Notes: a model not told the origin generated them from the letters alone. A stretch of 31,537 nucleotides of DNA from Microgenomates group bacterium (GCA_049700235.1 JBNAVS010000001.1:1-31537), one strand, 5' to 3'; counted from the first letter of the stretch, positions 2,386 to 13,102 are shown. Numbers and translations are program-made.

Positions 2386-2727
2386 TTAAATATTTACTTT
2401 TGCAAGTATTTTCTTCCCGAATACGTAACCAATTACGCCTTGAATTAGGTTAAAAACAAGATTGCTTAAACTAAAGCCCATTAGTTCGCTTCCCTTGTCC
2501 GTTCCGAGAAAATTAGCAACTTCAGTATTCCCAATTCTTAAATCGACTAAGTTGAGTAATGGTGTTATCAATAAACTTTGCACAAGTAAAAGTACGACAA
2601 CAATGATAATCGCCTTAAGAGCGTCGTATTGATCCTTAGCTTTTCTGCTGAGAACTAAAGCAAAAGTACCAAAAATTGCCGATTCAACAATCAAGTAACA
2701 AACTAATCCAATTATTGCTCCTATCAT
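2386..2727 (-). CDS. Hypothetical small membrane protein (about 3 TM segments)
   Basis: 113-aa hydrophobic ORF with AGGAGG upstream of the ATG and its own sigma70-like promoter. Confidence 0.8.
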   Translation of the reverse strand: MIGAIIGLVCYLIVESAIFGTFALVLSRKAKDQYDALKAIIIVVVLLLVQSLLITPLLNLVDLRIGNTEVANFLGTDKGSELMGFSLSNLVFNLIQGVIGYVFGKKILAKVNI

Positions 2728-2778
2728 TTTTTAACGCCTCCTTTCATTAAATTAACAAGTAATCAAACTCTTTGAACA

Positions 2779-2807
2779 ATTATACATAAAAGCCATTGTT
2801 TTTACAA
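2779..2807 (-). promoter_or_regulatory. Sigma70-like promoter of the 2386-2727 gene
   Basis: TTGTAA-17 nt-TATAAT with TG before the -10 on the minus strand. Confidence 0.7.
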
Positions 2808-2811
2808 ATAT

Positions 2812-2948
2812 GTATAAGTTACATACATTTGGGACAAATTGGTTTTTTCAATTAAGACTAAAAAGTCTTGTTGGGACTCCTACCTTGCCGTGTGCTAAAA
2901 TACTCATTGAGACTTACCAGAATCCCAAATGTTTCGTAACTTATTCAG
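2812..2948. repeat. Hairpin-forming repeat element, copy E1
   Basis: Arms ATAAGTTAC-AT-ACATTTGGG (2814-2833) and CCCAAATGT-TTC-GTAACTTAT (2924-2944). The first 45 nt are identical to 4479-4523. Confidence 0.9.
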
Positions 2949-3061
2949 GGCTATGTCCAGGCTTCGCATAATAACTTAAAGTCACAAAAATGCACATATT
3001 GCTTGGGGGCTGAAGACGCTCTATAATTGTTAAACGAGCCCTAACTTTTTTTGATGATATT

Positions 3062-3172
3062 ATGGAAGAAGAAAGGATCAAAATCCTTGACAAAAACTTT
3101 TCTTGGGAAAAGGCGAAGAAAAAGATTTTTGAGGAAGTTAAAAAATATCAATTGGCGACAATAAGAATGTAG
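3062..3172 (+). other. 36-codon ORF, possible gene remnant or spurious
   Basis: MEEERIKILDKNFSWEKAKKKIFEEVKKYQLATIRM*; protein-like composition, but no recognisable family and no SD. Confidence 0.25.
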
Positions 3173-3187
3173 ATTTACTCTCCCTGG

Positions 3188-3204
3188 CCTGAGCTTGCCG
3201 AAGG
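3188..3204. repeat. Short REP-like mini-element
   Basis: CCTGAGCTTGCCGAAGG resembles a short palindromic intergenic repeat (CCTGAGCTTGTCGAAGG type) recalled from other genomes; single copy in this window. Confidence 0.35.
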
Positions 3205-3234
3205 TAAAAACTTAAAAGTCGAGAGCATGAGGTT

Positions 3235-3649
3235 AAAAGCGGACAATTCCTCTTTCGAAAGAAAGTAGAAAGCCCACCTTCCGTAAAGGCAATTCTCGCT
3301 TTTGTTGGTAAACTACTACTCATCAACCAACAAATGCTTTGGTCACAACGAAAATCTTCCATTTCTGGAAGGAAGATTTATTAAAAAGCGAGCTAGTGTA
3401 AGTTTTCCAGTTGGCAATTGGGCCAGGTGTGGACCCCACTTATCCGCCAATGGCGATGCTATTGGTTTTCCCCAACTTCCACGAAAATAACCTTTCACTT
3501 TTTTTGTTTAAAGGTTACTTCAAAAAAGTCAAAAACATCAGCTCGACCCAAAAGCGGAGGAACCTCTTCTATTAGCGCCCAGGCAACAAGTATCGAAGAG
3601 TTTCCTCTTTGGGGACTTTAGCTAAAGAGACCTCTATAAGGGCCGGTCT
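3235..3649 (+). ncRNA. Candidate large structured non-coding RNA of unknown class
   Basis: About ten stems in 415 nt, including perfect 8-9 bp stems (3302-3309/3326-3333, 3352-3360/3371-3379, 3488-3495/3510-3517), a 12-of-13 bp stem extended by 6 bp (3547-3613) and a GAAA tetraloop on CTTTC/GAAAG (3252-3265). No convincing ORF. Strand inferred from GNRA loops and G-U pairs. Confidence 0.5.
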
Positions 3650-3733
3650 TAAGTTTTAAAAAATATTCATAATTAGGAGAGAGCTTTACTTTTTTCATTC
3701 TAAGAATATTTAGAACACAACAAAGCGTAGCCT

Positions 3734-4435
3734 TCAAGCCTGTCTACTCACTTCTGCTGGTTTTTCTTCTTTTGGTGGAGCTTTAGCTTCTGCTTTTTCC
3801 TCTTCTGGCACCTCTTCAGTCGGGGCTTCTTCTGTTGGAGGCGGAGCAACTTCCTCTTTTGCTGGAGGCTCGATTTTAACTAAAATCTGTCCTGGAGAAG
3901 TTAAAATTTTAACTCCCGCCGGTGGTTTCAAATCTCCTACCGTTATCGCCTGGTCGACTTCTTTTAACCCGGAAATATCAACCGTAAATTGACCAGGTAA
4001 ATCAGTAGGTAAGGCCTCAACTTCGACCTCGGTTAGAGGCTGAATCAAAACCCCAATTTTTTGCTCGACTGCCGGGGAGCGACCAACAATCTCTACCGGA
4101 ATGTTGGCGGTGATTTTCTCTTCCAAACTCACTTGGTGGAAGTCAACATGTAAAGGTTGATCAGAAACAGGATCAAACTGGACATTGTGAATTAAGGTTG
4201 GTCGAATTTTATTCTCGCCATCTACTTTTAACTCAACAATTCCCGTCTCCCCTACTTTCTGATAAACCGGCAAAAAATTTTTCAAAGGAACCTGAACGGC
4301 TAAAGACTTAACTTTATTTCCATAAATGTTCGCCGGCAAAATTCCCTTGCTCCGTAATTTTTTGACCTTTCGGCCAAAAACTTGCCTTTTTTCTACTTTA
4401 AGGCTGATTTTTTCTTTTTTGGTTTTCTTCGCCAT
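3734..4435 (-). CDS. rplY: 50S ribosomal protein L25 / Ctc (long form)
   Basis: GRKVKKLRSKGILPANIYG...LIHNVQFDPVSDQPLHVDF...EVEVEALPTDLP, with an acidic low-complexity tail. Confidence 0.96.
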   Translation of the reverse strand: MAKKTKKEKISLKVEKRQVFGRKVKKLRSKGILPANIYGNKVKSLAVQVPLKNFLPVYQKVGETGIVELKVDGENKIRPTLIHNVQFDPVSDQPLHVDFHQVSLEEKITANIPVEIVGRSPAVEQKIGVLIQPLTEVEVEALPTDLPGQFTVDISGLKEVDQAITVGDLKPPAGVKILTSPGQILVKIEPPAKEEVAPPPTEEAPTEEVPEEEKAEAKAPPKEEKPAEVSRQA

Positions 4436-4444
4436 AATGAAAAC

Positions 4445-4473
4445 ATTTTAAGTCCAAAATCCCAAATTGTCAA
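4445..4473 (-). promoter_or_regulatory. rplY promoter, leaderless or near-leaderless
   Basis: TTGACA-17 nt-TAAAAT, then only 9 nt to the ATG and no SD. Confidence 0.8.
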
Positions 4474-4478
4474 CAGTA

Positions 4479-4568
4479 GTATAAGTTACATACATTTGGG
4501 ACAAATTGGTTTTTTCAATTAAGTAATCCATTGGGCTTTTTAAACCCAATGTTTCGTAACTTATTCAG
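4479..4568. repeat. Hairpin-forming repeat element, copy E2
   Basis: Same 45-nt left part and same TGTTTCGTAACTTATTCAG right end as E1, with a shorter, different centre. Lies 5 nt past the stop of the 4574-7021 gene. Confidence 0.9.
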
Positions 4569-4573
4569 TCAAC

Positions 4574-7021
4574 CTACTCGCCGACAAAATACATCTCAAA
4601 AGGTAAATCAGAAGAAAAATTGGGATTAAAAAGATAGGAGTTATCTTGAAAAGTTGCCGGCGGCCAAGCAGGAATAATGACTGTTCCTGGCGGAGGAGAA
4701 ATTTTTAAGCTAAATTTCTCTTGCTTTGTCCCCGATTGCTTTTGAACAAGATACAAATATTGAGTTTTGCGTCCTCTGGGGATTTTTTCCGGAAGTAACC
4801 AAGAAATCTCTACTTTCCTTTCCTCGCCAACAGGAATATTTATTAAAAATCCAAAAGAAGTTTTACCGGCAGTTTCTTTAATATCGATTTTTTCTTTTCC
4901 CACCTCCTCTTTACCAATTAAAATTCTTTCCAACTCGCTACCCTTAGGAACCAAAATCCGTAAATAATTTTTGTAATCACCGGCAGGAAAATGAGCTGAG
5001 GGACTGGTGTTTCGATAAAAAATCTTTAAAACTTTTTCAATTCGGCCATCTTCGCCTATCTGGATTTCCTGATTTATCTCTCTTTCAACAAAATAATTTG
5101 CCTTATTCACCCCAACATTTGCCTCAATAATTGCAAGATAATCAGCCAAACATTCGGAGTCTGAAATTTGGCATTTGACATTTCTCACTGCTCCATCCCA
5201 ACCCAAATCAAAAATCTTCTCCATCGCCGAAGAATCGTTTAGATAAACAAGAATGTCTTTTGATTTTAAAGACTCATAAAGGGCTTTGGCGATTTCCCCT
5301 TGGGTCTTTCCTTTAGCATTTTTTATTTTTTCAAACAAGATTCTGGCAGTCGCTCCTAAAAAATCTTGCTTTTGGGTTGAACCAGGAAAAAAACCGATTT
5401 CCGAATAGTACTGGGCTCTTTCAAAAAAATTATTGGCGTTAATTTTTTCCTTATAATCAGGAAGTTCAATTTCGCCAACCGCCCTAAGCAATCTTTGGGC
5501 AACAAAAAGATTAATTCCCACTACCCCATCAACTACCCGACCAGTTTCTTTTTCTAAAAACCATTGGGCCTTTACTGCCGAGGTAGGAAAATCCGGGTCC
5601 CAGTTTGAGTCGCGCAAATACCAATTTGCCTCACCCAAATATTTTTTTAATTCCAACGGCGGCTCAACATGACCTTTAAGCTGACCGTCGGCCCAATAGA
5701 CATCCTGAACTTCAAAATCCACTAATTTCCCTTGGTTAAAAGTCAATATAGCAAAAGAACCGATGAAACCCCCGGTCGGCCGGAGTTCATTATTGTTTTG
5801 TAAAAGAACCAAATAAGTCCGTTTTTGGTCTTGACCAATCAACCAAGGCAATATCTCAATCACCTTCTTTGCTTGAATTATTAGGTTTTTTATCTTAGGA
5901 ATTTTTTGATTTAATTCATTCAACTGGTCTTTAAACCAAAAAAAATTAGCAGTTTGATTAATTAAACTGGGATTTTTCAGCTCTCCTTCAATTAAAGAAA
6001 GATAGAAATAAGACTGGTCCAACCCGATTTTAATTTCGGAAATTAATTTTTGGACATCGCCACCGGTATTTTGAAAAATATAACCAGATAAGGCAGCGGC
6101 ACTATCTGCTGCCAAACTCGCCTGGGCCAACCCCCGGGCTAATTCTCCTCCCAAACGAAAGGGCTTCCCCATTTTTTCTGCTTTCCTAAAAAATATTTCT
6201 GCCTTTTTTGCTCCAACAGCAGCTTTTTTAAAATCCCCTGATAGGAAAAACTTTTGGGCTTGTTTAAAATATCTTATCCCCAAAAATCCATTTAATCCTC
6301 CCCAAAAAAAGGGCGTCAAAATAATAAATAAAAAAATAATAGGGAGAAAAATTAAAAGCTTAAAATTACGCCTTTTTGCGGTAATTGAATATTTTTTAGT
6401 TTGGGAAGTTTTTGAGATCTGCTGAATCCCCTTTTCAAAACTAACTTGGGGCTTCCATTTTAATTTTTCTTCCCCTTCAGAAGTCAAATAAAAAATCTTT
6501 CCCGCTGTTCCTGGAGCAAACATTGCCTTGATTATTCCGAAAATAGCATCGGTGATGAACAAGGATTTTGGTTCAGGAATCTTTCCAACAGGCATTCTTG
6601 GCCCATAAACATCAACAAGATTAACTATCCTGACATCACCTTTTAAAAAATTTTCCTTAAAAATTTCCGGCCGAAAATTCCCAGAGGAAACAATTAAAAA
6701 CCTAGCCCTGGTTTTAGACGCTAATTGCCAAAGGTTTTGGCTGACAGCTTCCAAACCAACTAAATCAAATATATAGGATAATCCTTCGCCCTTTAATTCC
6801 GCAGGTAGAGGTTTTGTTAAATCATATTCAAGAAAAGTAAAATTCGGGTTTCCTAAACATTTTTTAAGATTTTCTTTATTGCCTTTTGATAAATTATCAA
6901 CGCAAATAACCCGACAATCCTGGAGTAAAAGAGCCTCGCACAAAAAGGAGCCAATAAAACCAGCTCCACCAGCAACTAGAGCAATTGGTTTTGTCGTCGT
7001 AATTTTTTGGGCAGTAATCAC
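4574..7021 (-). CDS. Degenerate NAD-dependent epimerase (SDR) domain fused via a TM helix to a DUF4012-like extracellular domain
   Basis: N-terminal ALVAGGAGFIGSFLCEALL...VICVDNLSKG and DVYGPRM; TM segment LLIFLPIIFLFIILTPFFW; DUF4012-type YLVLLQNNNELRPTGGFIGSFA, LRDSNWDPDFP and NVGVNKANYFV. Confidence 0.85.
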   Translation of the reverse strand: MITAQKITTTKPIALVAGGAGFIGSFLCEALLLQDCRVICVDNLSKGNKENLKKCLGNPNFTFLEYDLTKPLPAELKGEGLSYIFDLVGLEAVSQNLWQLASKTRARFLIVSSGNFRPEIFKENFLKGDVRIVNLVDVYGPRMPVGKIPEPKSLFITDAIFGIIKAMFAPGTAGKIFYLTSEGEEKLKWKPQVSFEKGIQQISKTSQTKKYSITAKRRNFKLLIFLPIIFLFIILTPFFWGGLNGFLGIRYFKQAQKFFLSGDFKKAAVGAKKAEIFFRKAEKMGKPFRLGGELARGLAQASLAADSAAALSGYIFQNTGGDVQKLISEIKIGLDQSYFYLSLIEGELKNPSLINQTANFFWFKDQLNELNQKIPKIKNLIIQAKKVIEILPWLIGQDQKRTYLVLLQNNNELRPTGGFIGSFAILTFNQGKLVDFEVQDVYWADGQLKGHVEPPLELKKYLGEANWYLRDSNWDPDFPTSAVKAQWFLEKETGRVVDGVVGINLFVAQRLLRAVGEIELPDYKEKINANNFFERAQYYSEIGFFPGSTQKQDFLGATARILFEKIKNAKGKTQGEIAKALYESLKSKDILVYLNDSSAMEKIFDLGWDGAVRNVKCQISDSECLADYLAIIEANVGVNKANYFVEREINQEIQIGEDGRIEKVLKIFYRNTSPSAHFPAGDYKNYLRILVPKGSELERILIGKEEVGKEKIDIKETAGKTSFGFLINIPVGEERKVEISWLLPEKIPRGRKTQYLYLVQKQSGTKQEKFSLKISPPPGTVIIPAWPPATFQDNSYLFNPNFSSDLPFEMYFVGE

Positions 7022-12293: not shown

Positions 12294-12317
12294 ATTTGTC
12301 CCAGATGTAACTTATAC
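12294..12317. repeat. Partial inverted copy (E3) of the E1/E2 element end
   Basis: ATTTGTCCCA-GAT-GTAACTTATAC compared with ATTTGTCCCA-AATGTAT-GTAACTTATAC in the E1/E2 reverse complement; 6 nt upstream of TTGACA at 12324. Confidence 0.7.
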
Positions 12318-12358
12318 AAGGGCTTGACAAAAAAAACTAAGATGATAAGATTAATTTG

Positions 12359-13102
12359 ATGACAAAACTTAATGATTTTTTAAAAATATTCTTAAGTCTG
12401 GGCTTAATTGTAATTATTTTTATTTTAGCCTTTTTCTTTTTTCCCTTCTCAAAAATCAATTGGGGGAAAATAGAATTTTTACCGGCAAAAACAATTACAG
12501 TTACCGGCGAAGCCCAAACTAAAGAAAAAAATCAAATTGCCACTTTTACCGCCGGGGTTTATGCTGTTAACGATAATAAAGACCAAGCAATTACTGAGGT
12601 CAATCAGAAAGTAAACAAAATAATTGAAGAGATTAAAAACTTTGGCATTAAGGCCGAAGATATCAAAACTTCAAACTTAAGTATTTACCAGCAGGAGGAA
12701 ACTTATTACGAAGAAGGCAGACAGAAAACCAGGCCGGGACAATGGCGAGTAAGCAATAATATTGATATTACTTTACGGAAGGTTGATCGCGCCTCAGATT
12801 TGGCTAATCTTTTGGGAAAAAGCGGAGCAAACAATGTCTATGGTCCAAATTTTTCCCTGGAAGATGTTAAAGAAACAGAAACAGCCCTTCTTAAAGAGGC
12901 AATAGAAAATGCCAGAAAAAAGGCAGAGGAAATCGCTAAAAACTCTGGAGTAAAAATAAAAAGAGTCATAAGCATCAGTGAAGGAAGCTCACAGACCTAT
13001 TATCCCCTAACGTTTGAGGCAAGAGGGGGTGGAGGCGCTCCGATTGAACCGGGGACTTCAACTGTTGGCAAAACAGTCGTGGTTGTTTTTGAAATTGAGT
13101 AA
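12359..13102 (+). CDS. SIMPL domain (DUF541) protein
   Basis: N-terminal TM, then TITVTGEAQ, DIKTSNLSIY, LGKSGANNVYGPNFSL and IEPGTSTVGKTVVVVFEI. Promoter TTGACA..TG-A-TAAGAT lies 7 nt before ATG 12359. Confidence 0.9.
   Translation: MTKLNDFLKIFLSLGLIVIIFILAFFFFPFSKINWGKIEFLPAKTITVTGEAQTKEKNQIATFTAGVYAVNDNKDQAITEVNQKVNKIIEEIKNFGIKAEDIKTSNLSIYQQEETYYEEGRQKTRPGQWRVSNNIDITLRKVDRASDLANLLGKSGANNVYGPNFSLEDVKETETALLKEAIENARKKAEEIAKNSGVKIKRVISISEGSSQTYYPLTFEARGGGGAPIEPGTSTVGKTVVVVFEIE

Follow-up and report, generated by a model that had tools for sequence, protein, structure and literature searches.

Hairpin repeats flanking rplY in a Microgenomates group bacterium are very probably decayed remnants of an IS481-like insertion sequence

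Two hairpin-forming repeats, here termed E1 and E2, bracket the gene rplY and a noncoding block in the genome of a Microgenomates group bacterium, which raises the question of what these repeats are and whether they could move the segment between them. A sequence-only reading of the window (the whole stretch of 31,537 nucleotides that was analyzed) had offered three options, namely a noncanonical single-strand recombination site resembling integron attC, a MITE, or a family of bidirectional terminators, and had suggested that the 1.5-kb segment between the repeats might be an excisable cassette. We compared the elements with the rest of their genome, with related genomes, and with public genome and metagenome sequences. 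Below, G000 designates the genome of the window (an assembly of 593 kb in 97 contigs, 83% complete), whereas C-numbers refer to contigs, G-numbers to genomes, and L-numbers to loci.

E1 and E2 share fixed ends and a common fold

The architecture that the sequence-only reading had described was reproduced in all its parts. E1 and E2 have fixed ends and differing centers, with a left end of 45 nt that is 100% identical and a right end of 24 nt that is 96% identical, and a 20-nt motif from the left end has two matches in the window compared with 0.02 expected by chance. As single strands, both elements fold into an outer stem of 9-10 bp and an inner stem of 7-10 bp that are separated by a small asymmetric loop, and their hairpins fold better than shuffled sequences, with z scores between -2.5 and -3.7. 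The inner right arm of E2 contains one A fewer (CCCAATG versus CCCAAATG), and 5 nt lie between E2 and the stop codon that ends a gene encoding 815 amino acids (4574-4576, minus strand).

Both ends match an IS481-like insertion sequence

An exact scan of public genomes with the right-end pattern of the elements returned 16 loci, most of them in MAGs of Patescibacteria. The conservation among these loci extended through ...TATTCA and was followed by immediate divergence, often at 50-140 nt from a contig end; such sharp divergence close to contig ends is characteristic of a multicopy insertion sequence at its terminus. A complete element of 1138 bp was delimited at L026 in a Saccharibacteria MAG (positions 4007-5144), which starts with TGAATAAGTTACGAAACATTTTGGAAAATTC, has GAATTTTCCAAAATGTATGTGACCTATACA at its other end, and contains a transposase ORF terminating in ...FSKMYVTYTYH. 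Because L026 carries both types of end, the right end of E1 and E2 corresponds to its IRL and the left end to its IRR. Full-length elements with both ends were also found at L053 (1125 bp) and L055 (1107 bp, with an intact ORF of 352 amino acids). We delimited about 20 elements of 1079-1138 bp, which have TG...CA (TG...ACA) ends and imperfect terminal inverted repeats (TIRs) of 25-30 bp, and a protein search detected homologues of the transposase in 47 of 301 genomes of the class. Insertion sequences of this family are common in Patescibacteria.

The homology is not confined to the tips. At L034, a metagenome contig, an IRR of 30 nt identical to the IRR of E1 and E2 adjoins a decayed transposase gene. 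This was the only homologous match in a metagenome scan with a 19-mer of the left end; the other five of the six matches diverged at once and were discarded as chance hits. In the parent family, the IRR itself encodes the C terminus of the transposase (...MYVTYT), and the center of E2, read on the minus strand, still encodes KSPMDYLIEKTNLSQMYVTYT, which equals the transposase C terminus. The interiors of E1, E2, and a third copy at C20:2535-2646 align to the 3'-terminal ~110 nt of two transposase genes, those of L026 and L034. Likewise, a six-frame search with the L026 transposase matched 4478-4558 on the minus strand to residues 236-262 (27 amino acids, 48% identity, E = 0.014).

These alignments delimit the following parts, all on the minus strand, which is the sense of the insertion sequence:

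2812-2948, minus strand: E1, 137 nt, very probable internally deleted relic of an IS481-like insertion sequence
About 2924-2947, minus strand: IRL of E1, TGAATAAGTTACGAAACATTTGGG
About 2837-2923, minus strand: interior of E1, decayed 3' end of the transposase gene
About 2811-2836, minus strand: IRR of E1, canonical terminus ...TTATACA-3'
4479-4568, minus strand: E2, 90 nt, shorter relic, very probably of the same insertion sequence as E1
About 4545-4567, minus strand: IRL of E2
About 4478-4503, minus strand: IRR of E2, tip base mutated (...TATACT compared with ...TATACA)

The same assignment explains the fold. The hairpins arise because the two terminal inverted repeats, IRL and IRR, pair with each other, and the asymmetric loop (AT versus TTC) results from a 1-nt indel between them: in the end alignment, every IRL is one base longer (ACGAAACA) than its own IRR (AC-ATACA), and this holds for all full-length members of the family.

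The transposase contains an HTH and the Pfam domains rve and rve_3. Its best NCBIfam model is IS481 (NF033577; E = 1.9e-43 to 4.3e-48), with IS3 in second place; as the scores of 149-164 bits lie below the curated cutoff of 224 bits, we describe the family only as "IS481-like." In six loci (L026, L050, L051, L052, L065, and L034), the transposase ORF has no stop codon inside the element and runs through the IRR, usually terminating at the TGA within a flanking TTGACA -35 hexamer.

Taken together, the homology of ends and interiors leads us to conclude with high confidence that E1 and E2 are nonautonomous, internally deleted, MITE-like relics of a DDE insertion sequence of the IS481-like family, which is ~1.1 kb long with TG...CA ends. 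Read in the sense of the insertion sequence, each relic comprises an IRL, a truncated and decayed 3' end of the transposase gene, and an IRR.

The genome holds further relics with different breakpoints

The sequence-only reading had allowed for the case that only these two copies exist, and the genome search turned up more. Our census of the 593-kb assembly counts two two-ended copies and four fragments, each with different breakpoints. Besides E1 and E2, they are as follows:

C20:2535-2646: relic matching nt 1-112 of E1, 87% identity over 112 nt
Window 12294-12318, plus strand: solo IRR (left-end) fragment, ATTTGTCCCAGATGTAACTTATACA, followed by AGGGC-TTGACA-16-TAAGAT
C20:940-995: 56-bp direct fusion of IRL and IRR, of another end subtype (IRR type ...GGMSKK...), with a right-end-like motif at 940-964
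C15:4007-4150: relic of this other end subtype (...GGMSKK... IRR) that keeps ~30 transposase codons, with a right-end-like motif at 4007-4031, followed by TTGAAT-17-TAAAAT

Two end subtypes are thus present among the relics of G000. The right-end-like motif on C15 continues in frame into FYNTKRAHESLGFKSPLDYL, the hallmark motif at the C terminus of rve-type transposases. A 470-amino acid ORF at C20:1132-2544 (plus strand) was considered as the cargo or transposase of a 1.7-kb element and was rejected, as it has no Pfam domain and the relics flanking it are of different end subtypes.

The last 45 nt of E1 and E2 are identical, and further in the two elements diverge. As their deletion end points differ, E1 and E2 are independent decay products and not members of an amplified MITE family; in agreement with this, no amplified family of near-identical copies was found in the 593-kb assembly. 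Of the three options offered at the outset, a MITE-like nature therefore holds in the weak sense of deletion derivatives that were not amplified, whereas the recombination site and the terminator fail on evidence given below.

We found no rve or IS481 transposase in G000, an 83%-complete assembly of 97 contigs in which an active copy may have escaped assembly. Given this lack of a transposase in the assembly and the mutated tip of the E2 IRR, E1 and E2 most likely are functionally neutral today and appear to be immobile. They would have decayed in situ.

Another repeated family in G000 has weak rve_3-like fragments (C14:1506-1583, C75:2646-2735, C11:2723-2770, and the end of C75 with the start of C69). 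One of its copies passes the end of a contig onto another contig and so probably marks an assembly break.

rplY is a resident gene and E2 is an insertion

The genes neighboring the elements (2386-2727, 3734-4435, and 4574-7021) are all located on the minus strand. Two of them frame E2:

3734-4435, minus strand: rplY (L25/Ctc, 233 amino acids; Pfam Ribosomal_L25p and TL5_C), by synteny a resident gene and not cargo
4574-7021, minus strand: gene of 815 amino acids with DUF4012 and epimerase domains, the immediate upstream neighbor of rplY in 8 of the 9 relatives compared

An invariant gene order around the elements had been named by the sequence-only reading as an argument against a mobile segment, and the DUF4012-rplY order is indeed kept in 8 of 9 relatives. 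The spacer between the two genes is about 48 nt in the relatives (47 nt in G009) compared with 138 nt here, which equals 48 nt plus the 90 nt of E2. The orthologous site in G009 reads stop-G-TTGACAATTT...TATGAT and holds no element, and no copy of E1 was found in a search of 40 relatives. From the conserved synteny and the spacer arithmetic, we conclude that rplY is resident and that E2 is an insertion.

The sequence GTTGAC flanks E2, abutting its IRL and recurring 4 nt beyond its IRR. A clean 5-bp target duplication was found at neither element, and E1 lacks any flanking repeat. It is the behavior of the family, not duplications of their own, that suggests that E1 and E2 were inserted by transposition.

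The block between E1 and rplY contains gene debris

The block that separates E1 from rplY (2949-3733) had been regarded as a candidate structured RNA. Our searches instead identified remnants of protein-coding genes:

3035-3173, plus strand: 5'-truncated remnant of a gene for an AbiEii-type toxin, which keeps its final 47 codons (3035-3166) and the stop codon; in tblastn, these are 72% identical to the G009 protein over its residues 169-215 (E = 2e-15)
3430-3374 and 3228-3178, minus strand: two collinear fragments of a decayed paralogue of a PT-linker membrane protein (58% over 19 amino acids and 76% over 17 amino acids)

The G009 reference protein of 216 amino acids is assigned to Pfam AbiEii (E = 3.5e-18), and G000 holds an apparently intact DUF6922-AbiEii pair elsewhere (C5:14300-15231). 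The E values of the membrane-protein fragments, about 1e-5 each, refer to a search against the block alone; in G009, paralogues of this PT-linker membrane protein come after rplY. The rest of the block gave no match in the searches made. No Rfam family reached its gathering threshold in the window, with only noise at E ≤ 5 in 2700-4700, and a search for tRNA and tmRNA genes found none. RNase P RNA was discarded as an identity for the block, as rnpB sits at C6:15109-15413. The locus thus holds no recognized structured RNA, and its block contains identifiable gene debris. E1 adjoins the point at which the AbiE locus breaks off, an arrangement consistent with a deletion associated with an insertion sequence.

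The relics and their parent family lie at the edge of promoters

The two best predicted promoters of the region adjoin the IRR tips of E1 and E2, and the solo IRR fragment is placed in a similar way:

4445-4473, minus strand: predicted promoter of rplY, TTGACA-17-TAAAAT, 11/12 matches; its -35 hexamer begins 4-5 nt past the IRR tip of E2
2779-2807, minus strand: predicted promoter of the 113-amino acid gene at 2386-2727, TTGTAA-17-TATAAT, 10/12 matches; its -35 hexamer begins 3-4 nt past the IRR tip of E1
12324-12351, plus strand: predicted promoter of the gene at 12356-13102, TTGACA-16-TAAGAT, 5 nt past the solo IRR fragment

In all four copies of the genome itself, the ...ACA tip is followed after 3-5 nt by TTGACA or TTGTAA and then, after 16-17 nt, by a -10 box. 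We extended this comparison to 38 right-end flanks drawn from many genomes. Within 30 nt, the best -35/-10 pair was located at an offset of 5 in 24 flanks and at offsets of 4-6 in 29, and a strict promoter was present at the right end in 19 of the 38, compared with 1.3% at random positions. The spacers are unrelated, even between two G104 copies with identical IS ends.

Perfect target duplications of 5 bp, equal to the 5-nt linker between the tip and the -35 hexamer, were found at L055 (CCCAG), L064 (GGTTT), and L103 (AAATA), compared with 0.02 expected by chance; those at L099 and L061 are partial, and most copies of the family have none. As the duplication equals the linker, the promoter must lie outside the element. 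Empty sites were identified in G024 and G104, which keep the promoter (TTGACT-17/18-TATAAT) and a downstream hairpin without the full-length insertion sequence that is present in the congeneric G083. The offsets, the 5-bp duplications, and the empty sites therefore indicate that the family integrates next to -35 hexamers that already exist, 5 bp upstream of them. Such integration leaves the promoter intact, which is why the relics adjoin the promoters of rplY and of the 113-amino acid gene.

At the conserved promoter of these congeneric genomes, a short hairpin with a T-run (GCTCGCAAATATGGCGAGCTTTTTT) lies ~10 nt downstream in three of them (L053 2330-2356, G024 C1 near 150352, and G104 C1 near 301206). 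It may represent a small RNA or a leader/attenuator.

On balance, we lean toward the view that E1 and E2 are the fossils of an IS481-like clade that homes to promoters. In such a clade, the transposase would actively choose the upstream boundary of sigma-70 promoters as its target and make its cut 5 bp ahead of the -35 hexamer. This transposase could read TTGACA-like DNA directly, given that a T[TCG]GAC motif occurs in the inner part of its own repeats; alternatively, it might dock on RNA polymerase that is bound to the promoter. Our literature searches found no description of an insertion sequence of this kind that targets the edge of the -35 hexamer. If promoter homing is true, it would represent a "safe-haven" integration strategy in ultra-small genomes, comparable with that of Ty3, which targets Pol III promoters. 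Landing 5 bp upstream of the -35 hexamer spares both the upstream gene and the promoter, and would explain how mobile DNA persists where intergenic space is scarce. The relics would furthermore mark promoters in organisms in which none has been mapped.

Alternative explanations

Among the alternatives to neutral relics, the one that retains some plausibility, although we consider it unlikely, is that E1 and E2 have been co-opted, either with the hairpin acting as a terminator, an RNA-stability element, or an insulating element, or with the AT-rich IRR acting as an UP-like element. Each copy is preceded by the stop codon of the upstream gene and followed by a promoter, the hairpins are more stable than their shuffled counterparts, and MITEs such as the Correia elements are known to affect transcripts. 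However, no U-tract follows the stem, and a scan for terminators was negative for both strands of E1 and E2, which also speaks against the terminator option. The centers and lengths vary between copies, and rplY promoters function in relatives, which lack the elements. Moreover, the target choice of the family alone accounts for the position of the relics.

The direct orientation of the two relics means that the outermost ends of the pair are one IRL (4567) and one IRR (2811). In principle, E2 and E1 could therefore delimit a composite transposon, and a transposase provided in trans would then mobilize rplY together with the block. We regard this as very unlikely, because rplY occupies its ancestral place and the assembly contains no transposase. 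In addition, the one sequencing run that contains the region showed no joint or circle signal, which is weak evidence, as this run consists of contigs only.

Less credible still, and close to refuted, is the attC-like reading, in which E1 and E2 serve as sites of single-strand recombination and delimit an excisable cassette of 1.5 kb. The succession of outer stem, bulge, and inner stem does superficially resemble attC, and E2 begins 5 nt past a stop codon. In contrast to the RYYYAAC and GTTRRRY cores of attC, however, the corresponding cores of the elements are ATAAGTTAC and GTAACTTAT. Their repeats match the ends of an insertion sequence by homology, the bulge results from the indel that distinguishes IRL from IRR in this family, and the interiors are debris of a transposase gene. 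With regard to a nearby recombinase, neither an integron integrase nor an HUH gene linked to the elements was found in the 83%-complete genome; the only two tyrosine recombinases of G000 are Xer-like and encoded on other contigs, and the integron-integrase model scored 124 bits, far below its cutoff of 265. The proposed cassette is likewise at odds with a strong predicted promoter of rplY's own and with a gene order that 8 of 9 relatives share. Junctions between E1 and E2, suggested as a further check, were searched for in one hot-spring metagenome, and no joint or circle was observed in its contigs, the only data used, at a word share of 0.13. These contigs contain short exact pieces of the region, with a higher word depth over E1 and E2 and loose ends leading into other contexts, a signal too weak to speak for mobility or expression.

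Finally, we give practically no credence to E1 and E2 being REP/REPIN-like hairpins mobilized by the HUH proteins of the genome (Y1_Tnp, IS200/RAYT-like ORFs of ~230 amino acids at G000 C44:1724-1960 and C46:2284-2505), as neither C44 nor C46 carries an E-type motif and both the ends and the interiors of the elements are homologous to a DDE insertion sequence and its transposase gene.

Comparison with known systems

With E1 and E2 read as relics of an IS481-like insertion sequence, the outcome for this locus is a deflationary one: it consists of transposon relics and the debris of pseudogenes, within a CPR genome that is shrinking, with no new recombination system and no mobile rplY cassette.

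Compared with integron attC sites, E1 and E2 are alike in their imperfect inverted repeats, their unpaired bulge, and their position just past a stop codon. They differ in having neither R and L cores nor an associated IntI or cassette array, in flanking a gene with its own promoter, and in their homology to IS ends.

The resemblance to MITEs and other IS deletion derivatives, such as the Correia elements (CREE) of Neisseria, is closer. Like these, E1 and E2 are small, noncoding, intergenic, bounded by the TIRs of a parent insertion sequence, and able to form a long hairpin; both of their ends have homologues in an autonomous insertion sequence, namely its IRL and IRR, and no transposase gene remains between them. 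In contrast to MITEs, their family shows no amplification, the breakpoints all differ, and clean duplications are absent at E1 and E2.

The parent element has several traits in common with the IS481 family, including IS481 and IS1002 of Bordetella: it is ~1.1 kb long, encodes a single rve DDE transposase that has an HTH at its N terminus, is bounded by TG(T)...ACA and imperfect TIRs, and produces target duplications of short length. In the IS481 family, these duplications range from 2 to 15 bp and are mostly 6 bp (PMC10045372), whereas that of the parent element is 5 bp. Its right end furthermore lies mostly 5 bp upstream of a -35 hexamer, and its transposase ORF usually has no stop codon within the element and ends at the TGA of TTGACA. 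E1 and E2 are thus ordinary relics of a known kind, and their sole unusual aspect is the promoter-edge targeting of the parent family.
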